A stretch of DNA of 64,000 bases, from NCBI RefSeq assembly GCF_048403405.1, contig NZ_CP183129.1. One strand, given 5' to 3'. Positions 4,612 through 36,115 of the stretch are shown here, piece after piece. The stretch's first letter is position 1. Every line of letters begins with the position of its first letter. The stretch is from Escherichia coli (lineage in GTDB: Bacteria; Pseudomonadota; Gammaproteobacteria; Enterobacterales; Enterobacteriaceae). Position numbers and translations under genes: made by a program. The notes below the pieces were generated by a model. It searched no databases, was not told where the DNA came from, and saw only the letters and a list, made by a program, of their open reading frames with translations.

Positions 4612-5328
<717 letters not shown>

Positions 5329-13045: not shown

Positions 13046-13050
13046 AATAT

Positions 13051-13126
13051 GCTGGTTTAGCTCCAATGGTAGAGCAGTCGCCTTGTAAGCGAATGGGTAG
13101 CGGTTCAAGTCCGTTAACCAGCACCA
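13051..13126 (+). tRNA. tRNA-like gene, anticodon UGU (Thr) by manual fold
   Basis: Acceptor GCTGGTT/AACCAGC (perfect), D-arm GCTC-CAATGGTA-GAGC, anticodon loop CTTGTAA, T-loop TTCAAGT, encoded CCA. Confidence 0.55.
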
Positions 13127-16273: not shown

Positions 16274-17685
16274 CCTCGATTAATCCTATCTTTGAACCGT
16301 TCATTGAGGCGCATCGCTATAAAGTCGCCAAAGGCGGTCGAGGTAGCGGTAAGTCATGGGCAATCGCGAGGTTGCTTGTTGAGGCGGCACGTCGGCAGCC
16401 TGTGCGTATTCTTTGCGCTCGTGAACTGCAAAACAGTATCAGCGATTCGGTAATCCGACTGCTTGAAGACACCATAGAGCGGGAAGGGTATTCGGCCGAG
16501 TTTGAAATTCAGCGTTCCATGATTCGTCATCTCGGAACAAATGCTGAATTCATGTTCTATGGCATCAAAAACAACCCGACAAAGATTAAATCGCTCGAAG
16601 GCATTGATATCTGCTGGGTGGAAGAAGCGGAAGCGGTAACGAAGGAATCATGGGATATCCTGATTCCAACCATCCGTAAGCCGTTCTCTGAAATATGGGT
16701 GAGCTTTAACCCGAAGAACATCCTCGACGATACCTATCAGCGATTCGTCGTAAATCCTCCTGATGATATTTGTCTGCTGACGGTGAACTACACCGACAAC
16801 CCGCACTTTCCTGAAGTTCTCCGTCTGGAGATGGAAGAGTGCAAACGCAGAAATCCGACACTGTATCGTCACATCTGGCTGGGTGAGCCGGTAAGCGCAA
16901 GTGATATGGCAATCATCAAACGTGAATGGCTTGAAGCTGCAACCGATGCGCACAAGAAACTCGGATGGAAAGCGAAAGGCGCTGTTGTTTCTGCGCATGA
17001 CCCGTCAGATACAGGGCCAGATGCTAAAGGTTATGCATCGCGTCACGGTTCGGTAGTTAAGCGCATTGCCGAAGGTCTGCTGATGGACATCAACGAGGGT
17101 GCTGACTGGGCTACTTCGCTGGCGATTGAAGACGGCGCTGACCATTACCTGTGGGATGGCGATGGTGTCGGTGCAGGGCTACGCAGACAGACAACGGAAG
17201 CATTCTCCGGCAAGAAAATTACCGCCACGATGTTCAAGGGCAGCGAATCGCCATTCGATGAAGATGCGCCTTATCAGGCCGGAGCATGGGCTGATGAAGT
17301 CGTACAGGGCGACAACGTTCGCACTATTGGCGATGTTTTCCGCAATAAGCGAGCGCAATTCTATTACGCGCTGGCTGACAGGCTGTATCTGACATATCGG
17401 GCGGTTGTCCACGGTGAGTATGCAGACCCCGACGACATGCTGAGCTTCGACAAAGAAGCGATAGGCGAGAAGATGCTGGAGAAGCTGTTTGCAGAACTGA
17501 CGCAGATTCAGCGCAAATTCAATAACAACGGGAAGCTGGAGCTAATGACTAAGGTCGAAATGAAGCAGAAGCTCGGTATTCCATCTCCTAACCTGGCTGA
17601 TGCGCTGATGATGTGTATGCATTGCCCAGAGTCGGCTGCGCAACCCGACTATTCCAGTTACTCAATTCCTTGTGGTGTAGGTTGA
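16270..17685 (+). CDS. Terminase large subunit (471 aa)
   Basis: Walker A KGGRGSGKSW near the N-terminus; size and position typical of P22/Sf6-like TerL. Confidence 0.9.
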   Translation: MTSINPIFEPFIEAHRYKVAKGGRGSGKSWAIARLLVEAARRQPVRILCARELQNSISDSVIRLLEDTIEREGYSAEFEIQRSMIRHLGTNAEFMFYGIKNNPTKIKSLEGIDICWVEEAEAVTKESWDILIPTIRKPFSEIWVSFNPKNILDDTYQRFVVNPPDDICLLTVNYTDNPHFPEVLRLEMEECKRRNPTLYRHIWLGEPVSASDMAIIKREWLEAATDAHKKLGWKAKGAVVSAHDPSDTGPDAKGYASRHGSVVKRIAEGLLMDINEGADWATSLAIEDGADHYLWDGDGVGAGLRRQTTEAFSGKKITATMFKGSESPFDEDAPYQAGAWADEVVQGDNVRTIGDVFRNKRAQFYYALADRLYLTYRAVVHGEYADPDDMLSFDKEAIGEKMLEKLFAELTQIQRKFNNNGKLELMTKVEMKQKLGIPSPNLADALMMCMHCPESAAQPDYSSYSIPCGVG

Positions 17686-17686
17686 T

Positions 17687-19885
17687 ATGGCAGAAAAAAA
17701 GATGACTGACTGGCATCGCAAGGTGCTGTGCAACTTTGATAATGCCTGGTCAGCAACGCAGGATATGCGTGAGCAGATTATTGAGGCTCAACGTTTCGTC
17801 CGGGTGTCCGGCGCACAGTGGGAAGGCAGCACAAACGCTGGTTACTCATTTGATGAAGGCAGGTTTGAGCATTACCCGCGTTTTGAACTGAATAAGATTG
17901 CCCGTGAATGTGATCGCATCATTGGCGAGTATCGACAGAATCGCATCAGCGTTAAATTCAGGCCGAAGGACGACAAGGCATCGGAAGCGTTAGCCGAAAA
18001 GATGAACGGCAAATTCCGCGCTGACTATCAGGAAACATCCGGTGGCGAAGCGTGTGATAACGCATTTGATGATGCCGTAACGGGCGGATTCGGTTGTTTC
18101 CGCATGTGTGCCGATTACGAAGATGAAATGGATCCGAGTAACGAGCAGCGCCGCATCAGCCTTCTCCCGGTTTACGACCCAGCGACATGCGTCTTCTTCG
18201 ATCAGGACAGCAAGCAATATGACCGCTCTGATGCTATGTGGGCTATGGAAATGTTCTCCATGACGCCTAAAGCGTTCGAGGCTGAATACCCTGATTCCAT
18301 CGCGGCAAGCCTTCCTCGTGATGACACTGGCACTCAATATGACTGGTCAACGCCAGATGCCATCTATGTTGGGCGCTACTACGAAGTTCGCATAGAGAAG
18401 GTGAAGCTCACGGCATGGCGCAACCCTGTTAGCGGAGAAACGGCAATCTATGATGAAGATCAAATCAAAGATATTGTCGATGAGCTAACCGATGGTGCAT
18501 TCGAACTGATTGGCGAGCGAACGGTGAAGAAACGCCGAGTTTATTGCGGTCTTCTGTCTGGCGCTGAATGGCTGGAAGAACCGAAGCGTATTCCGGGCGA
18601 ACATATTCCTCTCATCCCGGTATATGGGCGTCGTTCATTTGTTGATAATCAGGAGCGAATCGAAGGCCACGCAGCAAAAGCGATGGATGCACAGCGTCTT
18701 GAGAACCTGATGGTTTCCATGATTGCAGATAACGCCACTCAGGCTGGCGGTGATGGCATTCCTATCGTGGATGTTGATTTCATTCCCGGCCCATTAATGA
18801 ATCACTGGGCAGAGAGGAATAAGAAAAGACCTGCAGTTCTTCCCATGACCAGCAAGAAGGACAAAAACGGAACGGTCATTTCAGAGGCTCAGGTTGCTGG
18901 CTGGACACCTCCGACACAAATGCCTCCTGCTCTTGCCGGGCTATTGCAGTACACCGGAACGGCTATTCAGCAAATTACAGGTGCGTCGCAGCTTGAGAAC
19001 ATGCCGAGCAACGTCGCTACCGATACCGTTGATAGCATCTTTAACCGGATGGACACGCAGTCCTATATCTACATGGACAACATGGCTAAATCCATGCGCC
19101 GTGCTGGCGTCGTGTGGCTTTCTATGGCGCGTGAGGTCTATGGCAGTGATACGCCGATGCGTATCGTTAATGAGGACGGCAGCGATGACGTGGCGCTGAT
19201 GACTGGTGAAGTGGTTGACCGTCAGACAGGGCAGGTTATCGCGCTTAATGACCTTTCGCAGGGTAACTATGAAGTGACTGTCGATGTTGGTCTGTCGTTC
19301 GCTACTCGCCGTGATGCAACGGTTAAGTCGTTACTTTCCATGCTGGCACTTATCCCGCCCGGAACGCCGAAACACGACCTTGTATCGTCGATGATCCTCG
19401 ATAATATGGACGGCGAAGGGATGGACGACCTTAAAGAATACAACCGCAATCAGTTGCTTCTGTCTGGAGTTATCAAGCCGAGAACGCCAGAAGAACAGCA
19501 GATGGTTGAGCAGGCGAAACAACAACAGGCCAGTCAGCCAGATCCGGCTATGGTTGCAGCGCAAGGTCAGCTTCTTGCTGGTCAGGCTGAATTGCAGAAA
19601 GCGCAGAACGAACAGGCAGCCATTCAGGTTAAAGCATTCCAGGCACAGACTGATGCTCAGGTTGCAGCGGCAAATGTTGTGAAAATCCTCGCATCTGCCG
19701 ATAGCCAGCAGAAATCTGATATCCGCGAGGCTCTGAAACTGCTCGGACAGTTCCAGCAACAGCAAGGAGACAATGCCCGTGCTGATGCAGAGCTTGTCCT
19801 GAAAAGTCAGGCACAGGGCCATGCGCAGCGCATGGACATCAGCAGCATCCTGCAAAAATCAACTCAGCAACAACCACAGCAGTAA
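17687..19885 (+). CDS. Portal protein (P22 gp1-like, 732 aa)
   Basis: Multiple blocks shared with P22 portal (GEHIPLIPVYG, PEEQQMVEQAKQQQASQPDPAMVAAQGQLLAGQAELQKAQNEQ, RMDISSILQ). Confidence 0.9.
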   Translation: MAEKKMTDWHRKVLCNFDNAWSATQDMREQIIEAQRFVRVSGAQWEGSTNAGYSFDEGRFEHYPRFELNKIARECDRIIGEYRQNRISVKFRPKDDKASEALAEKMNGKFRADYQETSGGEACDNAFDDAVTGGFGCFRMCADYEDEMDPSNEQRRISLLPVYDPATCVFFDQDSKQYDRSDAMWAMEMFSMTPKAFEAEYPDSIAASLPRDDTGTQYDWSTPDAIYVGRYYEVRIEKVKLTAWRNPVSGETAIYDEDQIKDIVDELTDGAFELIGERTVKKRRVYCGLLSGAEWLEEPKRIPGEHIPLIPVYGRRSFVDNQERIEGHAAKAMDAQRLENLMVSMIADNATQAGGDGIPIVDVDFIPGPLMNHWAERNKKRPAVLPMTSKKDKNGTVISEAQVAGWTPPTQMPPALAGLLQYTGTAIQQITGASQLENMPSNVATDTVDSIFNRMDTQSYIYMDNMAKSMRRAGVVWLSMAREVYGSDTPMRIVNEDGSDDVALMTGEVVDRQTGQVIALNDLSQGNYEVTVDVGLSFATRRDATVKSLLSMLALIPPGTPKHDLVSSMILDNMDGEGMDDLKEYNRNQLLLSGVIKPRTPEEQQMVEQAKQQQASQPDPAMVAAQGQLLAGQAELQKAQNEQAAIQVKAFQAQTDAQVAAANVVKILASADSQQKSDIREALKLLGQFQQQQGDNARADAELVLKSQAQGHAQRMDISSILQKSTQQQPQQ

Positions 19886-19975
19886 TTAACCCATAACGTG
19901 CAATGGCTGTCTTTATGAGGCCTGGCACCCTATTGCCTTCCGATGGGCTGAACATCGAGTAAACAGGGGTAACAA

Positions 19976-20869
19976 ATGGACCAGATGGCAGAAAACACAC
20001 CAGAAGTTGAAATCGAAACCGACGCGTCAGAGCAGATTCCTGATGATGTCGAACTGGCTGAAGAAGTCGAAACAGCAGATGGCAGTGAGTCCTCCGGCAA
20101 TGATGCAGAGGAAGCTACTGAAACTGATGACGACGAATCAGAACAGGAATTCTACTTTGGTGACGAAAAGCTGGATTCGCCAACCAGCGAAGATGGAGCT
20201 GAGCATGGACTGGTAAAACACTTGCGCAAGACGATTAAAGAGAAAGACCGCGAGCTGAAAGAGCTGATGCGTCAGTCTCAGAAACCCGTCGAGCAGCAGC
20301 CGGTAATCACTCAACCACCGCGAATGCCAAAACTGGACGATGAGGACATCGGTTTCGATGAAGAAATCTACCAGCAACGCATGGCTAAGTGGGCAGAGGA
20401 TAACGGCAAATACCAGGAGCAAGTACGAGAGCGGAAACGAGAGGAAGAGGCGCGTACCGCAACGCTTCAGCAGAAAGCAGCCAATTACATGCAGAGAGTA
20501 AAAGCACTGAAAGTGGCTGGCTACCAGGATGCAGAACAGGCTGTACGCGAAGATGTTCCTGTTCATATTCAGGACATGATCCTTCTTGAGTCAGAGAAGC
20601 CGGAAATCGTTGTTCTGGCGCTTGGTCGCAACGCTGAACTGCGCAAGCAACTGGCAGAAGCTACCAACCCCGTAGCAATTGGTCGTCTGCTGGAACGTAT
20701 CGAATCTAAGGCCAGAATCATGCCAAAAGCAAAAACCACGGCAGCCACAACCCCGACAGTTAAGGGGAGCAACGGCGCAGTAATCAACAACCTCGACAAA
20801 TTGAAAGCCAAGGCGCTGGAAACTGGTGACTGGACGCCGTATTTCGCCGCTAAAAAGGCAAAAAAATAA
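19976..20869 (+). CDS. Scaffolding protein (297 aa)
   Basis: Acidic, helical, between portal and coat as in P22 gp8. Confidence 0.75.
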   Translation: MDQMAENTPEVEIETDASEQIPDDVELAEEVETADGSESSGNDAEEATETDDDESEQEFYFGDEKLDSPTSEDGAEHGLVKHLRKTIKEKDRELKELMRQSQKPVEQQPVITQPPRMPKLDDEDIGFDEEIYQQRMAKWAEDNGKYQEQVRERKREEEARTATLQQKAANYMQRVKALKVAGYQDAEQAVREDVPVHIQDMILLESEKPEIVVLALGRNAELRKQLAEATNPVAIGRLLERIESKARIMPKAKTTAATTPTVKGSNGAVINNLDKLKAKALETGDWTPYFAAKKAKK

Positions 20870-20887
20870 CCTATCGGAGCATTAAGC

Positions 20888-22147
20888 ATGGCTAACCAAT
20901 TAGCAAAAGACCTTGAAATCATGTTCGAAAACTACGTTGAAGGCTTTGAGGCCGCCTGCGTAGTTTCCCGTAACGCTAAAAAATTCCGTCCCGGTGATAC
21001 AGCAATGCAGCGAGCAGGTGATGTTCTGTATCGTCCGCAGCATTACCACATGAACATTGAGGAGGGCTTGGACCTCAGCGAAAAAACACCAACAGCACTG
21101 GTTCAGCGCCTTGTTCCTTCTGTGTTCAAGGAGCCGAAAAACATTCTGTACACTCTGGATGCGCGTGAAATGCGTGACCCGGAACATAAAACTGAAGCTG
21201 GTCGAGCCGCAGGTATGCGCCTTGCTGCACAGATTGACTCTGACCTGATTTCCATGGTCACGCAGCGTGCTACTAACGTGGTCGCAATTCCTGCCTCAGA
21301 AAATGGCTCACGGGGCCTTGCCTTGTGGAATGGTGCGGCAGATATTGATGCCACCATGACGGCGATTGGTGTACCTCAGGGTATCAACCGTCGCTCTTTC
21401 TGGAACCCATTCAACTACAAAGACCTTGCTGGCGAGCTTGGTCACCGTGCCTACGCTCAGGGCGCAACCCTGACAGCATACGAAAAAGCGCAGATCCCTC
21501 CGGTTGCTTCCTTTGATAGCTACAAGACCGATATTTCCGGTCGATTACCGGCAGGAAGCACTGAAACCTTGACAGTATCAAATCAACCTGAACACAAGGT
21601 TGAAGCGAAAGATTCAAATGGCATGCCTGTTGATAACCGACAGGGGACCATTACGGTATCTGCTAAAGGCTTGCAGGTTGGCGATGCGTTTACCATCGCA
21701 GGTGTGAATTCCGTACACCAGATCACCAAAGATACCACCGGGCAGCCGCAGGTATTCCGCGTTCTGGCAGTAGACACAGCAGGAACCACCGTAACAATCT
21801 CTCCAAAGATTCTCCCTGTTGGAAATACTGATGTTGCGAGTCGTCCATATGCAAACGTCTATGCCAAACCGGCAGAATCAGCAGCAATCACCATTCTCAA
21901 CAAGAACGCAGCACCGGCTAACCTATTCTGGGCTGATGGTTCTGTTGAACTGATGTACGGAAAACTGGCATTCCCGACTGGTCAGGGGCCACAGGTAATG
22001 ACAGCAACCACCGAGCAGGGCGCTACGCTGATCATGTCTTACTCCTTCGACCACATCAAAGGCGTAACCACTGCTCGTTTCACCACTCTGTACGGTTGCT
22101 CTGTACTGGTTCCTGAATATACGGGCATCGTTATTGCCGGGCAGTAA
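20888..22147 (+). CDS. Major capsid (coat) protein (419 aa)
   Basis: Position and size as in P22/Sf6 coat; followed by a hairpin. Confidence 0.8.
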   Translation: MANQLAKDLEIMFENYVEGFEAACVVSRNAKKFRPGDTAMQRAGDVLYRPQHYHMNIEEGLDLSEKTPTALVQRLVPSVFKEPKNILYTLDAREMRDPEHKTEAGRAAGMRLAAQIDSDLISMVTQRATNVVAIPASENGSRGLALWNGAADIDATMTAIGVPQGINRRSFWNPFNYKDLAGELGHRAYAQGATLTAYEKAQIPPVASFDSYKTDISGRLPAGSTETLTVSNQPEHKVEAKDSNGMPVDNRQGTITVSAKGLQVGDAFTIAGVNSVHQITKDTTGQPQVFRVLAVDTAGTTVTISPKILPVGNTDVASRPYANVYAKPAESAAITILNKNAAPANLFWADGSVELMYGKLAFPTGQGPQVMTATTEQGATLIMSYSFDHIKGVTTARFTTLYGCSVLVPEYTGIVIAGQ

Positions 22148-22155
22148 TTTTGGTG

Positions 22156-22180
22156 GGGCTTCGGCCCCATTTTTATTGGG
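22156..22180 (+). terminator. Hairpin plus T-run after the coat gene
   Basis: GGGGCttcgGCCCC followed by ATTTTTATT. Confidence 0.4.
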
Positions 22181-22188
22181 AGAAGACA

Positions 22189-22377
22189 ATGGTACGAACA
22201 ATGCTCTATAAGCCTGGCAACATGATCACCTGTGGTCAGTTTGCTGTCGATTACATCATTGTTGATGACGAAGAAGTTAAATCTCACCTGAAAAAAGGCT
22301 GGGTGAAAACTCCTGAAGAAACCGCAACGAAGCAAAAAGTGGCTAAGGCGGAAGAAGATGGCGAAAACGAAGGGTGA
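22189..22377 (+). CDS. Small hypothetical protein (62 aa from the ATG at 22189; ORF track lists 22150)
   Basis: ATG at 22189 with GGGAGA SD 5 nt upstream, downstream of the coat hairpin. Confidence 0.4.
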   Translation: MVRTMLYKPGNMITCGQFAVDYIIVDDEEVKSHLKKGWVKTPEETATKQKVAKAEEDGENEG

Positions 22378-22819
22378 TCTCGTTCTAAAGGCTTTACGAA
22401 AAGCTGGGCTGTATTCCAATGCCACGTTGACAGATGCTGACCCTCAGGCAATTGAAGATGCCATTAATGACCTCGAAGACATGATGGCAGCATGGCAGGC
22501 GAAAGGTATCGAGCTTGGATATCAGTTTGCTGATACAGAAAACGGCATCATGCCGTTACCTGACGATGATTCAGGTATCCCTGCATGGGCAAATGATGGC
22601 GTCGCTTTGAAACTCGCTGTGCAAGTGTGCATGGATAACGTCATTCAGCCGTCAGACGCTCTCCTTACCGCTGCTGACAGTGCATATCAGACAATCTGTA
22701 TCGCTTTAACCAAAATACCACCACTTGAGCGACGAAATGACATGCCTCGCGGGGCGGGGTTAAAAAGCGCGTTTACGTGGAATCGGTTTTACATCGAGAA
22801 AGATGATCCGAGTACGTGA
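22358..22819 (+). CDS. Head completion protein (P22 gp4-like, 153 aa)
   Basis: Gene order and size. Confidence 0.6.
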   Translation: MAKTKGDLVLKALRKAGLYSNATLTDADPQAIEDAINDLEDMMAAWQAKGIELGYQFADTENGIMPLPDDDSGIPAWANDGVALKLAVQVCMDNVIQPSDALLTAADSAYQTICIALTKIPPLERRNDMPRGAGLKSAFTWNRFYIEKDDPST

Positions 22820-22828
22820 GGTGAATAA

Positions 22829-24247
22829 ATGCCGATTCAGCAACTTCCGCTTATGAAAGGTGTCGGCAAAGACTTTAGAAACGCTGACTATATCGACTAT
22901 CTGCCAGTGAATATGTTGGCTACACCCAAAGAAATCCTGAACAGCAGCGGATATCTTCGCTCATTCCCGGGCATTGCAAAACGTTCTGATGTGAACGGCG
23001 TATCGCGCGGTGTCGAGTACAACATGGCGCAGAATGCTGTTTATCGCGTTTGCGGTGGCAAGTTGTATAAGGGAGAAAGCGAGGTCGGTGATGTCGCCGG
23101 AAGTGGTCGCGTATCAATGGCGCATGGTCGAACATCTCAGGCGGTAGGCGTTAAAGGTCAACTGGTCGAGTATCGCTATGATGGCACGGTTAAAACAGTC
23201 TCAAACTGGCCTACAGACAGCGGATTCACTCAGTATGAGTTAGGTTCGGTTCGCGACATTACGCGTTTACGTGGGCGTTATGCGTGGTCAAAATACGGCA
23301 CTGATTCATGGTTTATCACTGACCTTCAAGACGAATCGCATCCTGACCGTTACAGCGCACAATATCGCGCAGAATCGCAGCCGGACGGTATCATCGGCAT
23401 CGGAACATGGCGAGACTTCATCGTCTGCTTTGGTTCATCGACGATTGAATATTTTTCCCTGACTGGGGCAACCACCGTTGGTGCCGCTTTGTATGTCGCA
23501 CAGCCATCACTGATGGTGCAGAAAGGCATTGCCGGGACTTACTGCAAAACGCCATTCGCTGATTCGTATGCGTTCATCAGCAATCCGGCAACAGGTGCGC
23601 CGTCTGTTTACATCATCGGCTCCGGTCAGGTATCACCAATCGCCAGCGCGAGCATTGAGAAAATCCTCCGCTCCTACTCTGCTGATGAACTGGCTGATGG
23701 CGTGATGGAGTCTCTACGATTTGATGCTCATGAGTTGCTGATTATCCACCTTCCGCGCCACGTCCTCGTGTACGACGCATCTTCAAGCGCCAATGGTCCG
23801 CAATGGTGTGTGTTGAAAACTGGCTTGTATGACGATGTGTACCGAGCTATCGACTTCATTTACGAAGGCAATCAGATAACGTGCGGCGATAAGCTGGAGT
23901 CCGTGACCGGGAAATTGCAGTTCGATATCAGCAGTCAGTATAGCCTTCAACAGGAACACCTGCTGTTTACTCCACTCTTCAAAGCGGATAACGCCAGAGT
24001 GTTCGACCTTGAGGTTGAATCGTCAACTGGCGTTGCGCAGTACGCCGACCGCCTTTTTCTCTCTGCAACCACTGACGGCATCAATTACGGGCGTGAGCAG
24101 ATGATTGAGCAGAATGAACCGTTCGTTTACGACAAGCGTGTTTTGTGGAAGCGAGTAGGGCGCATCAGGAAAAATGTCGGCTTCAAATTGCGCGTTATCA
24201 CGAAGTCACCTGTCACTCTGTCTGGCGCTCAGATAAGGATTGAGTAA
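22829..24247 (+). CDS. Head completion / tail hub protein (P22 gp10-like, 472 aa)
   Basis: Length equals P22 gp10 (472 aa); gene order. Confidence 0.7.
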
Positions 24248-25200
24248 TGGCTGATTCGAATCTCAATGTGCCGGTAATCATCCAAGCTACGCGGCTCGAT
24301 ACATCAGTCCTTCCACGCAATATCTTCTCGCAGTCGTATCTGCTTTACGTTATCGCACAGGGCACTGATGTTGGTAATGTGGCTAACAAAGCCAACGAGG
24401 CCGGACAGGGCGCTTATGATGCACAGGTCAGGAACGATGAGCAGGATGTCACCCTTGCAGACCATGAATCCAGAATTGAAGCTGCTGAAGCAACTCTCAT
24501 CAATCATGAACATAGAATTGCAGCAGCGGAAAGCACTCTTGCAGATCATGAAACAAGGATTACGGCTGCTGAAACAGAGCTGGCTGATCACGAGACGCGA
24601 ATTGCTGCCAATGAATCTGAGTTAGCAAACCATGATGCGCTCATAACTCAGAATACAACCGATATCGATGCACTTGATACCAGGCTCACAGCGGCAGAGG
24701 GAAGTATTTCGACGCTACAAGGCACAGTTGGTGATCACTCAACAAGAATATCTGCGCTTGAGTATGCCATCACGCGCAAGAAATCAGAGGTTGTTTACTC
24801 TGGCGTATCTGTAACCATCCCGACAGCGCCGACCAACCTTGTTAGCCTGCTGAAAACGCTCACGCCGTCATCCGGGACGTTGGCACCATTCTTCGACACT
24901 GTTAACAACAAGATGGTTGTGTTCAACGAGAACAAAACCTTGTTCTTCAAGCTGTCGATCGTCGGGACGTGGCCCAGCGGAACCGCCAACAGGTCAATGC
25001 AGCTAACCTTTTCCGGCTCTGTTCCTGACACGTTGGTCAGCAGTCGTAATGCGGCGACAACAACCGACAACATCCTGTTAGCTACGTTCTTCAGCGTGGA
25101 TAAAGACGGCTTTCTTGCCACAAATGGCAGTACGTTAACCATTCAGTCAAATGGTGCGGCGTTTACTGCCACAACCATCAAGATAATCGCGGAGCAGTAA
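24247..25200 (+). CDS. Tail needle protein (gp26-like, 317 aa) with repeated coiled-coil shaft and C-terminal extension
   Basis: Four to five tandem 14-residue repeats ([14 protein letters not shown] / [14 protein letters not shown] / [14 protein letters not shown] / [14 protein letters not shown]); gene order. Confidence 0.6.
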
Positions 25201-25655
25201 TGATTCAGTTCAAACCAACGCGAAACATCGACCTGATCGAAGCAGTCGGAAATCACCCTGACATTATTGCCGGGAGCAACAACGGTGATGGATACGACTA
25301 CAAACCTGATTGCCGTTACTTTGAGGTGAACGTGCACGGGCAGTTCGGCGGCATTGTTTACTATCAGGAGATTCAGCCGCTTACATTCGATTGCCACGCC
25401 ATGTACCTGCCAGAGATTCGCGGATTCAGCAAGGAAATCGGGCTGGCGTTCTGGCGATACATTCTGACTAACACCACCGTTCAGTGCGTCACATCGTTCG
25501 CTGCACGCAAATTCCGCCACGGGCAGATGTACTGCGCAATGATTGGCCTTAAGCGTGTAGGAACCATCAAGAAATACTTCAAAGGCGTGGATGACGTGAC
25601 GTTTTACAGCGCCACACGCGAAGAACTAATCGACTTCCTGAATCACGGGAGATAG
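25200..25655 (+). CDS. Head completion protein (P22 gp14-like, 151 aa)
   Basis: Gene order and size. Confidence 0.55.
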   Translation: MIQFKPTRNIDLIEAVGNHPDIIAGSNNGDGYDYKPDCRYFEVNVHGQFGGIVYYQEIQPLTFDCHAMYLPEIRGFSKEIGLAFWRYILTNTTVQCVTSFAARKFRHGQMYCAMIGLKRVGTIKKYFKGVDDVTFYSATREELIDFLNHGR

Positions 25656-25657
25656 CC

Positions 25658-26350
25658 ATGTTATATGCATTTAAGCTGGGCAGAAAACTGCGCGGCGAGG
25701 AACCTTATTGCCCTGAAAAAGGCGGGAAAGGTGGCAGTTCTGATAAAAGTGCAAAGTATGCCGCAGAAGCTCAGAAGTATGCCGCAGACCTGCAAAATAA
25801 GCAGTTCAACACCATCATGAACAACCTGAAGCCGTTTACTCCTCTGGCTGATAAGTATCTCGGCAGCCTCGAGAACTTATCGTCTCTGGAGGGGCAAGGT
25901 CAGGCGCTAAACCAGTATTACAACTCTCAGCAGTACAAAGATCTTGCTGGTCAGGCTCGCTATCAGAGTCTGGCTGCAGCGGAAGCAACAGGTGGATTGG
26001 GTTCCACCGCAACCAGTAATCAGTTAGCAACAATCGCACCAACGCTTGGTCAGCAATGGCTATCTGGACAAATGAACAATTACAACAACCTGGCAAATAT
26101 CGGTCTTGGCGCTCTTCAGGGGCAGGCAAACGCCGGGCAAACATATGCCAACAACATGAGTCAGATTTCACAGCAAAGCGCGGCGCTGGCGGCGGCAAAC
26201 GCCAACCGACCGTCAGCATTGCAGCAGGGTGTTAGTGGTGCTGCATCCGGTGCGCTTTTGGGTGGTGGCATAGCCAGTGCTCTCGAGCTATCAACTCCGT
26301 GGGGTGCTGGTATCGGTGCTGGTCTTGGTCTGCTTGGCTCGTTGTTTTAA
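25658..26350 (+). CDS. Ejection protein (P22 gp7-like, 230 aa)
   Basis: Size (P22 gp7 is 229 aa), Gln/Ala/Gly-rich composition, gene order. Confidence 0.6.
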   Translation: MLYAFKLGRKLRGEEPYCPEKGGKGGSSDKSAKYAAEAQKYAADLQNKQFNTIMNNLKPFTPLADKYLGSLENLSSLEGQGQALNQYYNSQQYKDLAGQARYQSLAAAEATGGLGSTATSNQLATIAPTLGQQWLSGQMNNYNNLANIGLGALQGQANAGQTYANNMSQISQQSAALAAANANRPSALQQGVSGAASGALLGGGIASALELSTPWGAGIGAGLGLLGSLF

Positions 26351-26360
26351 GGGGTAATCA

Positions 26361-27776
26361 ATGGCTACGTGGCAACAGGGTATTAATTCTGGTGGTTTTC
26401 TGGCTGGAATTGGTGCGCAAAATGAGAATGCGCCAAAGGCAAGCGACATTAACGCAACGCTTGGTCTGATTCGCGAAAACAATGAACTGGCTCGCTCAGG
26501 TGCAAATAACGTTGGTCTGACCGCGTTACGTGGTCTGGCTGGAGTTGCTGATATTTACAATCAGGAACAGCAACAGAAAGCTATTAGTGCGTTCAATAAG
26601 GTTCACGCTGATGCATGGGTTTCTGGTGATCCATCGGGACTATTTAAGTTTGCCCAGGAAAATCCAGCGTTTGTTGCACAGGCACAACAGGCGTTTTCAG
26701 GTCTTAATGATCAGCAACGCAACGATATGGGCGATTTAGCCATGAGGGCTAACGTCGCTCTTTCTCAGGGACCGGAAGCCTACAGTAAATTCATTACTGA
26801 CAACAAGGACAGGTTAAATCGCGTGGGGGCGAATGCTGACTGGATGATTCAGACAGGTATCCAGAATCCAGAGCAGCTATCACACATGCTGACTACTATG
26901 TCTCTCGGTGCGCTTGGACCAGAAAAGGCGTTTGCTGTTCAGGACAAGATGGCTGGTCGTGAAATTGACCGAGGCAGACTGGCAGAGACAATCCGCAGCA
27001 ATCAGGCTGGAGAAGCACTTCAGGCGAGAGGGCAAAACCTTTCCTATCAGTCAGCAATGACTGGGCACAATATCGCAGCACAACGCTTGGCTCTGGATCA
27101 GCAAGAGTTCGGGTTTAAGATGCAGCAAGCGCAGGAAAAGGCTCAGCAGTTGATTAGCGAAGCACCTAAGCTGTCAGTAAACATGGAAAAAGGCATCGAG
27201 ACGGCTGTAAACAATGCCACAGCATCATCAAACTCAGCCAATTCCATGAGTGCGCTTGCTCAACAGTTCAGAGCAGAAAAACCAACGACAGGTTTGTTCG
27301 GTAACGCACAGAACATGTTCGCAAAACTTACCGGAAGCGATACGACATTGCGTGATTTGCGCATTCGCCAAAATGCTCTTGTTAACAGTCAGGTTCTTAA
27401 ATTCCTACCTCCCGGCCCAGCAACGGATAAAGACGTTGAGATCGTTCGACAGGGTGCACCAACTGACATGGATAACCCTGAGACGGTCGCAAGATGGCTT
27501 GATGCGATGGCAAACCTTGAGCGACGAAACGCGCAGTTTAATGAGTTTAAAGCCGAGTGGATGAGCGCGAATGGCAATCCAGGACAATCGCGTAATGGCG
27601 GTCAGATATTGGGGTTGGATGTTAAAAAAGGTGAATCATTGGGGAGTGCCGTTAAGCGGTATATGTCAATGAATACTGACGCAGCGCCAGCACAAGATTC
27701 GACACCTTCAGGAGAACCACGGAATCAGGTTGGATCATATACCTCAAAATCAGGCATTCAATTTACGGTGGAATGA
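26361..27776 (+). CDS. Ejection protein (P22 gp20-like, 471 aa)
   Basis: Size identical to P22 gp20; gene order. Confidence 0.65.
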
Positions 27777-29614
27777 TGAAAGTAACTGCAAACGGTAAGA
27801 CATTTACCTTTCCTGATGGTACGAGCACCGAAGATATTGGCACCGCCATTGATGAGTATTTTGCTGGTCAGGCTGTTCAGCAACAAACAGTTAATCAGGC
27901 CAATAATGCACCAACACGGGAAGAACCATCATTGATGCAACAAGCTGGCGATTGGCTCACAGGTGGTCAAAGTGCAGGGCAAATTGCAGAACAGGCTGGT
28001 CGTGGTCTGGTAAACATACCATTTGACGTATTGCAGGGTGGCGCAAGTCTGATTAATGCAATCAGTCAGGGGCTTGGTGGGCCAAAAGTATTAGATGATG
28101 TCTATCGTCCAGTCGATCGACCGACAGACCCTTATGCGCAAGCTGGAGAAACAATTGGCGGGTATTTAGTTCCAGGAGTTGGAACGGCAGGAAGCATGGC
28201 TATTGGATCACTGGCAGAGGCCGCAAATCAGAAAGGCGATTTCGCACAAAATGCAGCTAAAAATGCCGGAGTTAACCTTGCCGCTCAGGGTGTTCTTTCC
28301 GCAGCAGCAAAGGGAATAGGGCGTGGAATAACGGCTATAAAAGGTGATATTGCGCCAGAAGTGGCGAAGAAAATTGCCACATCAGAATCGATGGGCGTGA
28401 CACCAATGACATCTGATGTTATCCCGCCGAAAAATGCTTTCACTCGCGGCCTTACTCAGGATGCCGAGGGGGCTTTGCTCGGGACAGGCTCAAAGCGAGC
28501 GGAGCAATATGCAACGCGTAGTAAGTTGGTAAGTAATTATTTTGACCGTTTTGGTGAGTACAACCCTGATGATGTGGTGAAATCTCTGACCACCACGTTA
28601 AGGGGGCGGAAGGATGCCGCTGGCGCTGTTATCAATGACGTCACCAATAAAATGGGTAATGCCGCAGTTGATACCACAAATACCATGAATGCTCTGAATA
28701 CAGCGATCGCAAGACAGGAACGGCTTGGGACTTCAGCCAATCAAAGCCTGCTTACATCCTTGCGTAACCTACGTGAAGAATTAGCAAACCCTGCAACTGA
28801 TTTGGATGTTACGTTTGATCTCTTGCGTCAGCACAGAACAGCATTTAGATCTAATGTTCAGGGAGATGCTATGGTCTTCCCCAACCAGGCAAAAGCAGCT
28901 ACCAATATGGTAGAGAATGCAATGTCAAAAGACCTTCGTAACGCAGTTGCTAAAAACCTCGGTGCATCAGACGCAGCAAAATACCTTAAAGCAAATTCCG
29001 ATTATGCAAACGTTTATAATAAGGTGCTTAATAAAAACATTGCTAACAAGCTCAACAAGGCAAGCAGTGAAGCCAGTCCTGAACTTATAAATACCGTTGT
29101 ATTAAGCAGAAAACCATCTGACGTAAAACGAATCTGGAGCGCATTGGATAATAAAGGGAAAGATGCTATGCGTGCAGCTTATGTCAGCAAAATAGCGGAA
29201 AAGGCCGGTGACTCTCCAGCCAAGTTCATCACTGAAGTTAATAAGCTGAAATCTCAGTCAGGCGGTGAAATTTACAACACTATTTTTTCTGGAAAGCACA
29301 TGAAAGAGCTTGATGCTCTTCATGAAGTTCTACAGCAAACAGCAAGGTCAGACACCGCAAATGTAGTAACTCAGACGGGGCAATCACAAGCCAACAGGAT
29401 AAGGACGATTGGCGCAACTGCGACTCTTGGCGTATCAATGGGGCTTGAGTCTGGCTTTGGTGCAATGATGCGTTTGTATGAGTCTAAAGCAGCAAGAAAC
29501 ATGCTTCTCCGCCTTGCAAACGTCAAGCCTGGAACTCCGGCATATGAGCGAGCGTTAAATCAGGCTGCTAACGCCGTTCGCCCTCTCCTAACTAACGAAG
29601 CTACCAGGCAGTAG
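27773..29614 (+). CDS. Ejection protein (P22 gp16-like, 613 aa)
   Basis: Size (P22 gp16 is 609 aa); gene order. Confidence 0.65.
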
Positions 29615-30038: not shown

Positions 30039-30117
30039 TTTGTTTTAGCTTTATGCTTGCTTGTATGTGTGTACAGTGTATATAATGCAAGCATACATCA
30101 CAACAAAGGTGCTTGCA
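30030..30117. promoter_or_regulatory. Divergent promoter region with four 8-bp half-sites TGCAAGCA/TGCTTGCA in two inverted pairs around TTGCTT-N18-TATAAT
   Basis: Sites at 30030..30037, 30053..30060, 30085..30093 and 30110..30117; -10 TATAAT at 30081..30086; the last site overlaps the SD/ATG of the 30120 gene. Confidence 0.5.
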
Positions 30118-30119
30118 TT

Positions 30120-31088
30120 ATGACTGAAAAGAAAAGTGGCGAAGGGAAAGCTAAGGGCGGGATCGCTCGCGCAAAGTCGCTGACTAAAGAGCAGCGTTCT
30201 GAAATAGCAAAGAAAGCAGCTGCTGCAAGATGGAAAAGTAAGATTCTCAGGGCAACTCATCGTGGTAACTTTTTAGATGATTTTGGCATTGATGCTGAAT
30301 GTTATGTACTGGATGACGAGTCGAAAACTGTCGTTGTTACGAAAACTGGATTATCTCAGTTGCTAGGGATTGGTGAACATGCCAGGGATTTAGATCAACT
30401 GCTTGGCGCTCAGTATATGAGCAAATACCGAGATCTAGAATTGCAGCGAAAAATGGAAAATCCCTATAAATTTCAACTTACTTCGAAGTCTAAAACCGTT
30501 CATCAAGCGTTAGGTTATGACATTACAGCAATTGTTGATATTGGTAGGGCACTAATAGAAGCCAAAGATAATGACGATCTACCACAATCACGGTTAAAGG
30601 CAGCCGCCGCAGCACAGAGACTTATTAATGCCTCCGCTAAGGCGGGAATTAAGGGGGTTGCGTATGCGCTTGCTGGTTATCGTCCAGAAGTTCAGGCTGT
30701 CATTGACGAGTTCAAAGCGTTTGTTCGTGAAGAGGCTCGTCAATATGAAAAGGAATTTCCAGATGAGCTATACGAGGAGTGGTATCGACTGTACGGCCTG
30801 AATAGGCCAGAGAAAGGACGGCCTATTCGTTTTGGGCAGCTAACCAACATGCAGATATACACCCCGCTAGCAAAGAGTAAAGGTAAAATCCTTGAACAAA
30901 TTAGAGCCAGCCGAGACGAGAACGGAAAACAATCTGATAAGTTGCATCTGTTCCTTTCTGAAATTGGTGTCAAGGCTTTGCGTCAGCATATCGGTAAGCT
31001 TCTTGGTGTCGCAGCGATGAGTGAGACAAGAGAAGAATACGAAAAAGGAATAGAAAAGGTTTTCGGAAGAATGAAACCAGAAATCTAA
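30120..31088 (+). CDS. Unknown moron protein (322 aa) with basic Lys/Ala-rich N-terminus
   Basis: Start at the internal ATG 30120 of the ORF-track entry 30057..31088; N-terminus MTEKKSGEGKAKGGIARAKSLTKEQRSEIAKKAAAARW suggests nucleic-acid binding; followed by a strong terminator. Confidence 0.6.
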   Translation: MTEKKSGEGKAKGGIARAKSLTKEQRSEIAKKAAAARWKSKILRATHRGNFLDDFGIDAECYVLDDESKTVVVTKTGLSQLLGIGEHARDLDQLLGAQYMSKYRDLELQRKMENPYKFQLTSKSKTVHQALGYDITAIVDIGRALIEAKDNDDLPQSRLKAAAAAQRLINASAKAGIKGVAYALAGYRPEVQAVIDEFKAFVREEARQYEKEFPDELYEEWYRLYGLNRPEKGRPIRFGQLTNMQIYTPLAKSKGKILEQIRASRDENGKQSDKLHLFLSEIGVKALRQHIGKLLGVAAMSETREEYEKGIEKVFGRMKPEI

Positions 31089-31092
31089 TTAT

Positions 31093-31118
31093 GAAACCCA
31101 CCGTCAGGTGGGTTTTTT
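31093..31118 (+). terminator. Rho-independent terminator
   Basis: AAACCCACCgtcaGGTGGGTTTTTTGT immediately after the 30120..31088 stop. Confidence 0.55.
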
Positions 31119-31355
31119 GTACAAATCCTTCAGCGTATCAAACACCATCTTCTTAACAAGTTCAGACTGCTCATCAGCGATGCGTTCCGCATCGTCTCGA
31201 TAGCCTGAAATTTTGGATGGCTTTGATACAGCATCAGTCACTATCTGAACTAATTCTGAATTAAGAGAGCGGCCATTGGATTTGGCTCGCTGTTTTAGTT
31301 TTTCCTTTAATTCGTAAGGTAGCCGCAGATTAAATTGCGGGTCATCTCTTCCCAT
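31104..31355 (-). CDS. mnt: Mnt repressor (Arc/MetJ-family ribbon-helix-helix, 83 aa)
   Basis: MGRDDPQFNLRLPYELKEKLKQRAKSNGRSLNSELVQIVTDAVSKPS...DAERIADEQSELVKKMVFDTLKDLYKK closely matches P22 Mnt (from memory). Confidence 0.85.
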   Translation of the reverse strand: MGRDDPQFNLRLPYELKEKLKQRAKSNGRSLNSELVQIVTDAVSKPSKISGYRDDAERIADEQSELVKKMVFDTLKDLYKKPT

Positions 31356-31490: not shown

Positions 31491-33569
31491 ATGACAGACA
31501 TTACAGCCAATGTTGTAGTGAGCATGCCTTCGCAACTCTTCACTATGGCGCGTTCTTTTAAAGCCGTAGCCAATGGCAAAATTTATATCGGAAAAATTGA
31601 CACTGACCCGGTAAATCCTGAAAACCAGATTCAGGTTTATGTGGAGAATGAGGATGGTTCTCACGCTCCTGTATCGCAACCAATCATCATTAACGCTGCT
31701 GGTTACCCGGTATATAACGGACAGATTGCCAAGTTCGTAACTGTGCAAGGCCATTCTATGGCTGTTTATGATGCGTATGGTGCGCAGCAGTTTTATTTTC
31801 CTAATGTGCTGAAGTATGACCCTGATCAGTTTCAGAAGAGGTTGGCATCCTTTGATGATGGTGATGGGGATGAATTAGTGTCGGTGAAACAACCATTCCC
31901 CGGAGCAGCAAATCAAACTCAACACCAAAAGAACCAACAAATCATTGATGTTCTTGACTTCGGTGCTCATCCATCGAATGCTGACAATAAAGTAGCTCTG
32001 CAATTTGCGCTAGATGCAATATATAGCATTGGAGGAGGTACACTACAGTTTTCACTACCAGGCATATATACTTTGCTTTCTGAGTTGCAAATAAAATCAA
32101 ATACTCACCTAAAGATGACTGATGGCGTAACCATTAAACGTAATTTTTCTAATGACGTCATGCTGAGAATAAGCCCTAATACTGGCACTAACATTAAAAT
32201 AACAGGCGGAATACTAGATGGAGGAGGACAAGACCACCCTACAGATCCTTTTGACATCATTGCAGCCTCCTCACCAAGAAATCTTTCTATTGTTGGAGTA
32301 ACATTTCTTGATGTAGTCGATTTTCATGCTGTAGATATTGCTGACGGGCAAGGGGTGATTATAAGAGACTGTAAGTTTCTTGGCTTCAAACCACTTTCCA
32401 ACCGAAATTATTCAGAAGCGATCCAGTTAGATCCGGGGATTGAATCTCTTGGCGATTATTACCCAAACATCAATGTTCTTGTTGATAACTGTTATTTTGG
32501 TTCAAATCCACAAAATACCACCACTGGGTTTGGGGCGTGGGGGGCGGGGGTTGGGAACCATGCTAATTCATATGGGAATCAGGACAAAAATATAAGGGTC
32601 ATAAACTGCAGGTTCGATGGAATGCTCTTTGCCGGGGTAAGGGTTTTCAACTGGTATGATTGGGTGGTTAGCGGATGCTCTTTCTATAACAGTACCGCGC
32701 GAGGAGTTCATGTAACCCCATTCCCATCATCATCAAAACCACAGGGGGCAAGGAGGGGGCGCATTGTTGGCAATTATTTTGAAGGCGTTAGATCCCCGAT
32801 TCTTCTGGCTGCACCTACATATCCATATACAGATACATCAGATGCATTTCATGAAGATATCGTAATATCCAACAATTCCATGTTTATTACAGAGTCTCAA
32901 TCATATGCAGTAGACGCAAGATGGGTTTCAGGACTAACTGTCACTGGAAACACAGCAAGAGGCGGAATCGGTTTTTTCAAAGGTGATTTTATTAACAAAT
33001 CAATCATCTCTAATAATGAATACGATTCAGGAACATCAAGTTCTTTATGGATTTCTGAAACTAATGCAGAAGAATTTATAGGGTCTGGTTTTTCGCATGA
33101 TGTTGTAATTTCTAGCAACATCTTTAGAAATATTTCCCTGCATGGGATTCATATTAATGGTAAATATTCAAATGTTACTATTCAATCAAACATTATAGTT
33201 GGGGTTTCTACCGCAGATAATAACCATAATGGCATACGAATTGACTCTGGTGCAGAAAATGTAATTGTTAGTTCAAATCAAATTCGTGATGGCGTTGCAA
33301 ATAATAAACCATTAGTTGGTATATTTGCTACATCAAGCTGTAAGAGCGTGTCATTTATAGGGAATGTTTCATTTGGAACATCAGCCACACAGAATAATCA
33401 AGCTACAGATAAAAGCTCACTTGTGATATTTGGGCAAGAAGGCAACCCAACATCTAGCGGAGTTGGAGCACCAGTTGGTTCTATTTACACTCGTTCTGAT
33501 GGAGGTGGAAATACAGTACTTTATATAAAGGAAAGCAACACAAATGCTACAGGTTGGGTTAATAAGTAA
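31491..33569 (+). CDS. Tailspike protein (692 aa): P22 gp9-like head-binding N-terminus, divergent beta-helix receptor-binding domain
   Basis: First ~110 aa match P22 gp9 ([11 protein letters not shown]...[33 protein letters not shown]...[14 protein letters not shown]...NVLKYDPDQ); remainder is unrelated, AT-rich and Gly/Asn/Ser-rich. Confidence 0.85.
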
Positions 33570-33655
33570 AACCAGCATTTAAATACAATATATATCATAA
33601 AACTTACATAATAGTTATAACTATAATTCTTGCTTAAGAATTTATAAAAACTGAA

Positions 33656-33693
33656 ACACACAAAGCTTTGCACTGGATTGCAAGGCTTTGTGT
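33656..33693. terminator. Bidirectional hairpin between the convergent tailspike and int genes
   Basis: ACACAAAGCTTTGCActggaTTGCAAGGCTTTGTGT. Confidence 0.5.
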
Positions 33694-33713
33694 TATTCGA
33701 TAGTTAATGCAGA

Positions 33714-34907
33714 TCACTCCACCTTTTCATCAAGCCAGTCCGCCCACCACTGCATCATTTCTCTGCGCTTATCGAGATACTGAGCATGGTTGTAAATTCC
33801 ACGTACAGATCCGCCGTTGGCATGTGCCAGTTGCACTTCAATGGCGTCGGCAGGCCATTCGTGCTCGTTCATAATCGTGCTGAATTCATGCCTGAATCCG
33901 TGACCGCTTTCCAGACCTTCATAGCCGATTTGTTTGATCACAAGTAGCACCGCGTTCTCGCAGATTGGCTTCTTCTTATCGTTGCGCCCGGAAAAAACAA
34001 ACTCTGATACTGGTTTAGTGATTGAGCTTAGTGTAGTGAGAAGTTCAACCACCTGGTCTGACATCGGGACAACATGAATTTTGCGTCCCTTCATCACACT
34101 GGCGTCGATGGTGATAATCCTGTTTTCAAAATCGACGTTCTTCCATAGCATGGAACGAAGCTCTTTTGTTCTTAGGGCTGTGTAGCGTAAAACTTTGGTC
34201 GCAATGAGCGATACGATACTTCCTGAAAATGTTGCAAGTGCTTTGTTGAATGCCGAGATCTGGTCGGCAGGTAAAAACGGGAAGTTCTTCTTGCGGTATC
34301 CCTTCATGGCGTCAGCAAGGTCAGGTGCCGGGTTATATTTAGCCCTACCAGTGACAATAGCGTAACGGAAAACCTCGCCGCATCTTCTGCGGGCTTTGTT
34401 GGCTCGCTCCATTGCACCGCGATCTTCAAATCTGCGGATTACTTCCAGCAGTTGCATCGGCTCAATATCCTGAATTTCAAGGCCGCCGATGATAGGTAAA
34501 ATGTCGTCATCAAACATTTTTGCAAGTTCAGTTGCATAGCCTACTGACCAGACTTGCTTCTTGTGCTCGTACCATTCCTTGTAAATCGCACTAAAGGAAT
34601 TGTTGTTAGACGAAGCCTTTTTCGCTTTTACCGGATCGATGCCAACCGAGATGTCTTTCCTCGCGGTCCATGCCTTATCCCTTGCCTCCTGCAAAGTCAT
34701 AAGCGGATATTTTCCGACGGTCAGGATTTTCTCCTTACCGTCAATCTTGTAGCGAAGCTGCCATACCTTTTTCCCTGATACAGGGACATAAAGGTACAGG
34801 CCATTACCATCGAGTAGGCGGTATGGTTTTTCTTTCGGCTTTGCTGCTTCAATCTGCTTAACGGTGAGCATGGGTAAAAATCCGGTGGGTAAAATTATTT
34901 TATCCAC
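33714..34907 (-). CDS. intS: Tyrosine integrase, P4-family (IntS-like; 397 aa, or 385 aa from MLTVKQ at 34871)
   Basis: N-terminus MLTVKQIEAAKPKEKPYRLLDGNGLYLYV typical of P4/IntS-type integrases; C-terminal HxxR...Y catalytic region; adjacent to the tRNA-Arg 3' end and transcribed away from it. Confidence 0.9.
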   Translation of the reverse strand: MDKIILPTGFLPMLTVKQIEAAKPKEKPYRLLDGNGLYLYVPVSGKKVWQLRYKIDGKEKILTVGKYPLMTLQEARDKAWTARKDISVGIDPVKAKKASSNNNSFSAIYKEWYEHKKQVWSVGYATELAKMFDDDILPIIGGLEIQDIEPMQLLEVIRRFEDRGAMERANKARRRCGEVFRYAIVTGRAKYNPAPDLADAMKGYRKKNFPFLPADQISAFNKALATFSGSIVSLIATKVLRYTALRTKELRSMLWKNVDFENRIITIDASVMKGRKIHVVPMSDQVVELLTTLSSITKPVSEFVFSGRNDKKKPICENAVLLVIKQIGYEGLESGHGFRHEFSTIMNEHEWPADAIEVQLAHANGGSVRGIYNHAQYLDKRREMMQWWADWLDEKVE

Positions 34908-35032
34908 TTTTTACCCGTCATGGAGTGCGGCTGTCAACGATCTGACGCGAACCATTACGAACTGTTAATCTACGGAAGGCTTGATATTCAGGGGATTTTG
35001 CGGACTGGTGCGGATGGGAGCGAACTGATAAA

Positions 35033-35107
35033 TGGTGTCCCCTGCAGGAATCGAACCTGCAATTAGCCCTTAGGAGGAGCTCGTTATATCCATTTAACTA
35101 AGAGGAC
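35033..35107 (-). tRNA. argW: tRNA-Arg (anticodon CCU), argW; prophage attachment site
   Basis: Reverse complement reads GTCCTCTTAGTTAAATGGATATAACGAGCTCCTCCTAAGGGCTAATTGCAGGTTCGATTCCTGCAGGGGACACCA (75 nt, CCT anticodon loop, TTCGATT T-loop, CCA end). Confidence 0.85.
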
Positions 35108-35182
35108 AATGCGGCATGAGTATACCCGCTAATGGACTGCGGGGTAAGTACGTTGCCGCTCGATTGCTTAAACCCTCGCCAT

Positions 35183-36115
35183 TTATACCGGGTTTTTATC
35201 ATTTTTCTTAATGTTTTCCGCTCGTTCTGCTTTTTGGCGTGCTTCTGCTTTGCGCTTGTTGCTCATGTCGTTACGGATCTGTGCATGACTCATTAACGCG
35301 AAGATAAAGGTGCCGCCGCAGATGTTCCCCGCTAAAGTAGGTAGTGCGAAGGGCCAGATGAAATCGCTCCAGTGCAGCGTGCCGTTAAACACCAGATAGA
35401 GGATTTCTACAGAACCGACAACGATGTGGGTGGTGTCACCCAGGGCAATAAGCCAGGTCATCAATATAATCACCACAATCTTTGCCGCACCCGCTGCAGG
35501 AAACATCCAAACCATAGTGGCGATCAGCCAGCCGGAAATGATCGCGTTGGCAAACATCTCGCTGGGGGTGTTCTTCATCACATCCATGCCGATTTTGACA
35601 AATGCATCGCGAGTTTCTTCATTGAAGATTGGCATATATTCAAATGCCCACGCCGCAATACCTGTCCCGAGAATATTACCCAGCAGCACGACGCCCCATA
35701 ACCGCATGAGTAAGCCAACGTTGCTCATTGTCGGTTTTTGCATGACGGGTAGTACCGCAGTCACGGTGTTTTCGGTAAATAATTGCTGGCGGGCCATAAT
35801 GACGATAATAAAACCAAAGGTATAACCGAGATTCTCCAGCAAGAAGCTGCCCGGCACACCTTCCAGTTCGACATGAAATATCCCTTTTGCCAGTAATGAA
35901 GCGCCCATCGACAGACCCGCCGCAATGGCTGACCACAGTAGTGCCATTGCGTCGCGTTCCAGCTCTTTTTCACCATCCTGGCGGATATGCTCATGAATTG
36001 CCATCGCCCGGGAGGGGAGTCGGTCTTCATCTATTTCTATTTTTTTGCCGCGCTCTTTTTCTTCGCTCTCAACTTCAATTTCGTCGCTGTGTTGATCAAT
36101 TTTGTCGTTGTCCAT
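35183..36115 (-). CDS. yfdC: Inner-membrane formate/nitrite-transporter-family protein YfdC (310 aa)
   Basis: Multi-TM protein with acidic N-terminal extension; conserved position next to argW. Confidence 0.8.
   Translation of the reverse strand: MDNDKIDQHSDEIEVESEEKERGKKIEIDEDRLPSRAMAIHEHIRQDGEKELERDAMALLWSAIAAGLSMGASLLAKGIFHVELEGVPGSFLLENLGYTFGFIIVIMARQQLFTENTVTAVLPVMQKPTMSNVGLLMRLWGVVLLGNILGTGIAAWAFEYMPIFNEETRDAFVKIGMDVMKNTPSEMFANAIISGWLIATMVWMFPAAGAAKIVVIILMTWLIALGDTTHIVVGSVEILYLVFNGTLHWSDFIWPFALPTLAGNICGGTFIFALMSHAQIRNDMSNKRKAEARQKAERAENIKKNDKNPV

Follow-up and report, generated by a model that had tools for sequence, protein, structure and literature searches.

Position of an IntS-type integrase gene at the argW end of a P22-like prophage in Escherichia coli, and the probable location of its excisionase at the opposite end

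Results

Integrase gene, tRNA gene, and attachment site

The window, i.e., the whole stretch of 64,000 nucleotides of E. coli DNA that was analyzed, contains part of a P22-like prophage, which adjoins host DNA at the tRNA gene argW. The relevant features, each with the basis for its assignment, are the following:

1–35047, no strand assigned: part of the P22-like (Lederbergvirus-type) prophage inside the window (gene content, synteny with ST131 MB1159, phage matches)
31491–33569, + strand: tailspike gene, the final late gene, which converges on intS (Pfam Head_binding, Beta_helix)
33646–33693, − strand: hairpin with a stem of ~15 bp (33658–33693), then UUUCAGUUUUU on the int strand (RNA fold)
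33714–34871, − strand: intS, encoding a tyrosine integrase of 385 aa (Pfam and identity to K-12 IntS)
34872–35031, − strand: P′ arm of attL, with the intS promoter (sequence comparison with KplE1 attL of K-12)
35032–35047, − strand: crossover core of attL, CTGCAGGGGACACCAT (all 16 nt as in the core of KplE1, PMC2951348)
35033–35107, − strand: argW, an intact gene for tRNA-Arg (anticodon CCT), with its 3′ end toward the prophage (ARAGORN)

The open reading frame of the integrase was called as 33714–34907 (− strand), but its true start is the ATG at 34871, which yields a protein of 385 aa. This protein contains the domains Arm-DNA-bind_3, Phage_int_M, and Phage_integrase, all of which scored above the Pfam cut-offs (catalytic domain, E 2e-38). 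It is of the same length as IntS of E. coli K-12, from which it differs by two substitutions (383/385 identical, or 99.5%), and is 98.4% and 98.2% identical to the Int proteins of Sf6 and HK620, respectively. When NCBIfam was searched, a sub-threshold match to a generic integrase domain was all that was obtained, with no match for TorI or for the tailspike. A second integrase was not found by tblastn in the 64-kb window. intS and argW share a strand; intS starts 161 nt away from the 3′ terminus of the tRNA gene and reads away from it, just as the original prediction had described the arrangement.

According to Panis et al (2010; PMC2951348), the core CTGCAGGGGACACCAT, 16 nt in length, is duplicated and is found at either border of the prophage KplE1 of K-12. 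In the identical core of the window, the 3′ terminus of argW accounts for the first 15 nt, and the remaining 1 nt is located beyond the tRNA gene. The 16-mer is present as a single copy in the window, even when two mismatches are allowed (0.02 matches expected by chance). Host-type identity, as judged from strain MS 69-1, in which argW carries no prophage, begins at 35026, and phage-type identity, as judged from Sf6 attP and from the genomes of the free phages Sf6, IME10, and N7, ends at 35047. The host and the phage comparison bracket the crossover at 35026–35047, so that attL and argW overlap at the 3′ terminus of the latter, as had been predicted.

Between the core (35047) and the intS ATG (176 nt), 171 positions are identical to attL of KplE1 in K-12; the five differences are located at 35010, 34978, 34966, 34956, and 34946. 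From the −35 box through the ATG, the sequence is identical to the experimentally mapped intS promoter of K-12, with the hexamers as published, i.e., TTGACA at 34937–34932 (−35) and TAAAAA at 34913–34908 (−10; both − strand). In K-12, primer extension has confirmed these hexamers, and the promoter is placed inside attL of KplE1 (PMC2951348). By homology, the P′ arm is also predicted to carry arm-type binding sites for IntS as well as binding sites for TorI.

Two further observations concern the tRNA gene and its unoccupied counterpart. The prophage-free argW site of MS 69-1 (L002, 47816–47837) has 22 nt, CTGCAGGGGACACCATTTATCA, in common with the phage side (35026–35047 of the window), which extends beyond the 16-nt core; these 22 nt may have been left behind when an earlier element was integrated and excised, or they may represent a longer attB specific to the lineage. 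The argW gene of the window is identical to that of MS 69-1, and both contain a C-to-T exchange at ~35075 (anticodon stem), which turns a G-C pair into a G-U pair and is present neither in K-12 nor in ST131 MB1159.

On the host side, argW is flanked by yfdC (35183–36115; Form_Nir_trans), followed by mlaA, as is the case in K-12. The closest host relatives, e.g., MS 69-1, are 100.0% identical over 13 kb of this right flank and contain no prophage at argW; in MS 69-1, ompH/upaE adjoin the tRNA gene. Between mlaA and fadL, the window contains an open reading frame (37346–38635, − strand; 429 aa, GC ~0.35) without a Pfam match, in which (GATATT)n at 38116–38191 encodes an Asp-Ile repeat. Nothing takes its place in the mlaA–fadL interval of K-12 and ST131; in the close host relatives, a hypothetical protein, presumably the 429-aa open reading frame, is annotated in the matched flank.

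Tailspike gene and spacer

The original prediction had intS convergent with the tailspike gene, and the two genes indeed face each other (31491–33569 on the + strand, 33714–34871 on the − strand), with 144 bp (33570–33713) separating their stop codons. The tailspike protein (692 aa) consists of a P22-type Head_binding domain (E 2.8e-66) and a Beta_helix domain (Pfam). The spacer contains no serotype-converting or O-antigen–modification gene. It does contain the hairpin listed above, for which a folding energy of −25.9 kcal/mol was calculated (z = −5.1 on the − strand and −4.6 on the + strand) and which is followed by a U-rich run on the int strand. A simple consensus terminator scan did not list it. 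Judged from its sequence and position, the hairpin probably is a terminator separating intS from the convergent tailspike gene.

The tailspike is rare. Among 5426 complete E. coli genomes, only two, which belong to O25b:H4-ST131, yielded a full-length match (97% identity), and the gene is annotated there as phage tailspike; in the remaining genomes with similarity, this was confined to the N-terminal head-binding part, and the exact protein had no record in a large protein collection. Together with the missing O-antigen–modification moron, the rare tailspike could mark a new host-range variant.

Gene content of the prophage

The morphogenesis operon (16270–29614, + strand) encodes terminase, P22-type portal and coat, gp4, gp10, a needle knob of the Sf6 type, and ejection proteins. 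The corresponding Pfam matches include P22_portal (E 1.3e-169), P22_CoatProtein (E 9e-73), Phage_stabilise (E 3.7e-296), P22_Tail-4, Phage_tail_NK, Inj_translocase, and Head_binding. The set by which a P22-like phage is recognized (portal, coat, gp4, gp10, needle, ejection proteins, and a tailspike with head-binding domain) is present in full. The best phage matches were Kapi1, CUS-3, vB_EcoP-720R6, and further Lederbergvirus-type phages; among the complete RefSeq E. coli genomes, none carried the prophage at an identity of at least 99%.

Genes for lysis and replication and nin genes are also located within this part of the prophage. The repressor gene cI (4612–5325, − strand) and the early-left operon (N, Ral, DUF2528, RecT, and Gp157; − strand) occupy the left edge, and the entire late operon intervenes, as had been noted, between this early region and intS. 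The left edge of the window cuts the early-left operon inside an open reading frame of 104 aa; the prophage, therefore, continues leftwards, which would place attR and torI further left.

An immI-like region (30057–31355) is located between the ejection genes and the tailspike gene. It encodes a P63C-domain protein (343 aa; 30057–31088, + strand), which occupies the position of ant in P22, and a Mnt-type Arc repressor (31104–31355, − strand) near int. The prophage also contains two tRNA genes of its own, tRNA-Asn(GTT) and tRNA-Thr(TGT), which are 5 nt apart (12971–13126, + strand) and lie upstream of the lysis and packaging genes, directly downstream of an open reading frame of 207 aa (12073–12696) that would, by position, encode a Q-type antiterminator.

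Search for an excisionase in the window

When TorI, a lambda-type Exc, and an AlpA-like protein of 63 aa were used as queries in tblastn, the best match across the 64 kb had an E value of 0.57, and Pfam returned no family of recombination directionality factors (RDFs) among the small open reading frames near int and in the early-left region. The statement that no excisionase gene is located near int was thereby confirmed. The small neighbors of int encode the Mnt/Arc repressor and the P63C-domain protein; the region upstream of int consists of 161 nt of attL, followed by argW, and no RDF gene directly precedes int on the same strand, as it would in a cassette of the lambda type. Neither a direct-repeat search nor a pattern search allowing up to two mismatches revealed a second att copy in the window, and since the core occurs only once, attR would be located outside.

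The 104-aa open reading frame at the left edge produced a sub-threshold match to the winged-helix family HTH_12 (20.4 bits, with a cut-off of 21.4) and was considered as a candidate RDF gene. It was rejected, as in relatives it co-occurs either with a lambda-type Exc-Int pair (L003) or with TorI (L008).

The far prophage end in relatives

A contig from a human-gut metagenome (L008) is 100.000% identical to positions 1–2519 of the window. Leftwards, it continues with ead/DUF551-type genes, followed by a gene whose 66-aa product is identical to TorI (PDB 1Z4H, E 6.6e-43). A copy of the core, CTGCAGGGGACACCA, is located ~75 nt past the torI stop codon, after which host csc genes follow. Both items that were to be sought at the other end, a repeat of the argW 3′ segment and a small TorI-like gene, are, thus, contained in this contig. 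Mapped onto the window, its core copy corresponds to about −3680 to −3694, i.e., to ~3.7 kb left of position 1. If torI and attR of the prophage under study are located at this distance, as the shared sequence suggests, its size would amount to ~38.7 kb, which is comparable to the genome records of HK620 (38.3 kb) and Sf6 (39.0 kb). The predicted torI gene (201 nt, − strand), encoding MQHELQPDSLVDLKF…, would be found 3–6 kb from the left edge, with CTGCAGGGGACACCA at most ~80 nt away and host DNA (ompH/upaE/dsdC or the csc operon) next to it. The host flank of L008 is the csc sucrose operon, unlike in MS 69-1 (ompH/upaE), and L008 may, therefore, represent the same phage in a different host.

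Other relatives end in the same way, including three complete ones (L001, L004, and L005). In ST131 MB1159 (L001), torI and a core copy are located 42 kb from argW, and the order of genes is torI–core–dsdC in L004 and torI–core–csc in L005. The IMG/VR sample comprised 19 contigs that contain the 53-mer at the left edge of the window, none of which was identical to the window; torI was found on the left side in 11 of them and was not within the stretch read in the other 8. A core copy ~77 nt past torI was found in all four contigs whose stored sequence contains one. The claim that the RDF gene and attR lie beyond the left edge, thus, holds in so far as the window contains neither a second core nor torI; the far end itself is seen in relatives only (L008, L001, L004, L005, and 11 of the 19 IMG/VR contigs).

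A different continuation was observed in contig L009 (ENA NODE_223, 84.6 kb). It is 100% identical to positions 1–2364 of the window and, over the next 1.9 kb, 99.9% identical to L008, but then, 1.9 kb to the left of the window, departs from it and joins a terminase/Head-tail_con packaging module without torI–attR. This contig derives either from another phage that has the early-left block in common or from chimeric assembly.

In MB1159, a second integrase gene, the product of which is 45% identical to IntS, is located directly outside the core copy of attR (L001, 1–4943). It belongs to a satellite with P4-like genes (encoding a DUF927 protein, ogr/Delta, and sce7725/sce7726), which means that argW is occupied in tandem in this strain.

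Comparison with known systems

The recombination module of KplE1, which comprises IntS and TorI, was reportedly described by Panis et al in 2007, 2010, and 2012. In KplE1, transcription of int and of the RDF gene is uncoupled, and the same module is present in HK620, Sf6, and CUS-3 (PMC2951348). The intS promoter is repressed by IntS and by TorI through binding sites overlapping the promoter (PMC2951348, PMC3509656). TorI is experimentally required for excision (PMC3509656); excision dependent on TorI and IHF, and autorepression of intS, were established experimentally for KplE1 only (PMC2951348, PMC3509656). P18 of Sf6 and HkaC of HK620 are both 100% identical to TorI (PMC3509656), and the same identity was obtained when gene 18 of Sf6 was translated for the present study.

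KplE1 (also CPS-53) resembles the prophage of the window in its argW site, the 16-nt core, the nearly identical IntS and attL including the promoter boxes, and the orientation of int. The gene order in K-12 is argW–intS … torI–pawZ–dsdC, i.e., intS and torI are located at opposite ends of the element. However, KplE1 is a remnant of 10.2 kb without repressor or morphogenesis genes and contains yfdGHI (gtr) downstream of intS, whereas the prophage of the window has a full-length P22-like gene set, with int directly abutting the tailspike gene.

HK620 and Sf6 share with the prophage the P22-like late genes, an int gene that follows the tailspike gene on the opposite strand, and an attP core between int and the gene for a protein identical to TorI. 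In Sf6, the order is tailspike (+), oac (−), int (−), annotated attP core, and gene 18 (−); in HK620, it is tailspike, O-antigen–modification gene, int, attP core, and hkaC. Integration at an attP site between the torI homologue and int sends the two genes to opposite ends of the prophage. The arrangement that the original prediction had given for KplE1 and HK620, with int and the RDF gene at opposite ends, is, thus, borne out by the literature (PMC2951348), by the gene order in K-12, and by the records of Sf6 and HK620. The only departure from these models is a small one: both HK620 and Sf6 (oac) have an O-antigen–modification gene between tailspike and int, and KplE1 has yfdGHI at the corresponding position, but such a gene is missing here. 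The receptor-binding part of the tailspike and much of the early region also differ, as is usual in such mosaic phages.

The closest overall relative is the argW prophage of ST131 strains MB1159 and 4993, which has the tailspike (97%), intS, argW, and the junction with yfdC in common with the window and, at its opposite end, carries torI along with a core copy. It differs by an overall identity of ~97%, by other replication and nin modules, by insertions of IS1 and ISEc52, and by the integrase-bearing satellite beyond attR.

The int-xis systems of lambda and P22 resemble the IntS/TorI module in that they, too, consist of a tyrosine integrase with an arm-binding domain and a small RDF and involve IHF. 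In lambda, xis and int are adjacent at one end of the prophage and are cotranscribed from pL. In the module of the window, by contrast, attP between the RDF gene and int would result in placement of the two genes at opposite ends and in their separate transcription.

Discussion

Everything in the window that characterizes an IntS/TorI module at argW (the site, the core, the integrase, its orientation, and the promoter) is present. The locus is, thus, very probably the argW-proximal junction (attL) of a temperate P22-like prophage that employs this module, with torI and attR a few kilobases beyond the left edge. What can be read in the window itself is nearly certain; the far end is the least secure part of this reading.

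Regulation and activity of the module can be described by analogy with KplE1. In the circular phage genome, the early-left operon would end in torI, followed by attP, int, and the tailspike end of the late region. IntS would recombine the attP core (16 bp) with its identical counterpart at the 3′ end of argW, and this crossover would restore an intact tRNA gene and open the phage circle at a point between torI and int. The resulting prophage would have int at the argW end, adjacent to and convergent with the tailspike gene, and torI at the tip of the early-left operon at the other end, beside attR. Severed from pL, int would have to be transcribed from a promoter of its own, for which the predicted sigma-70 promoter inside attL is the candidate. 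Excision would require TorI, supplied from the distant end, together with IntS and IHF.

The far end, which lies beyond the window, might also be defective or rearranged, with torI and/or attR lost or replaced and the int–attL junction left behind as a locked-in remnant. The early-left region is highly mosaic, and L009, despite being 100% identical at the left edge, joins a module without torI; in the ST131 relative, the same region is disturbed by IS elements and the tandem satellite. However, every gene inspected in the 35 kb of prophage within the window is an intact open reading frame with full-length domain matches, IntS and attL are nearly identical to those of the functional KplE1, and torI and the core are kept in L008, L001, L004, and L005, which makes decay of the far end unlikely. 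Should the torI–attR end nevertheless have been lost or swapped, at which the mosaic join of L009 hints, an otherwise complete P22-like prophage would remain, from which particles might still be formed but which could not be excised precisely from argW. Neither this possibility nor that of a host-range variant would involve a new mechanism.

Even less probable is that the integrase gene and attL belong to a separate, older element at argW, resembling the KplE1 remnant, and that the P22-like prophage has a module of its own elsewhere. IntS is closer to its KplE1 counterpart in K-12 (99.5%) than to the Int proteins of Sf6 and HK620 (98.2–98.4%), and tandem elements are known at argW from MB1159. 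Yet, int and the tailspike gene are separated by a gap of only 144 bp with one shared hairpin, the tailspike–int junction recurs in two ST131 genomes, and int occupies the same position downstream of the tailspike gene in the free phages Sf6, HK620, IME10, N7, and Kapi1; moreover, tblastn revealed no second integrase in the window. That the RDF is an unrecognized small protein encoded inside the window, to which the several early-left open reading frames without Pfam match and the 104-aa open reading frame with its weak winged-helix similarity might lend themselves, can practically be dismissed, given that the 104-aa gene accompanies modules of either kind and that TorI, experimentally required for excision (PMC3509656), is 100% conserved beside the IntS/att module in every relative examined.

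The main reading of the locus fixes the right-hand boundary of the prophage at the 16-nt core (35032–35047) and assigns the element to the P22-like prophages that use an IntS/TorI module at argW. The arrangement as such is already known and is textbook for P22-like phages and elements such as HK620, Sf6, and KplE1; together with its regulation, it was worked out for KplE1 more than a decade ago. The value of the finding, therefore, lies mainly in correct annotation: the lack of an excisionase gene beside int is explained by TorI, which would be encoded at the far end of the prophage.
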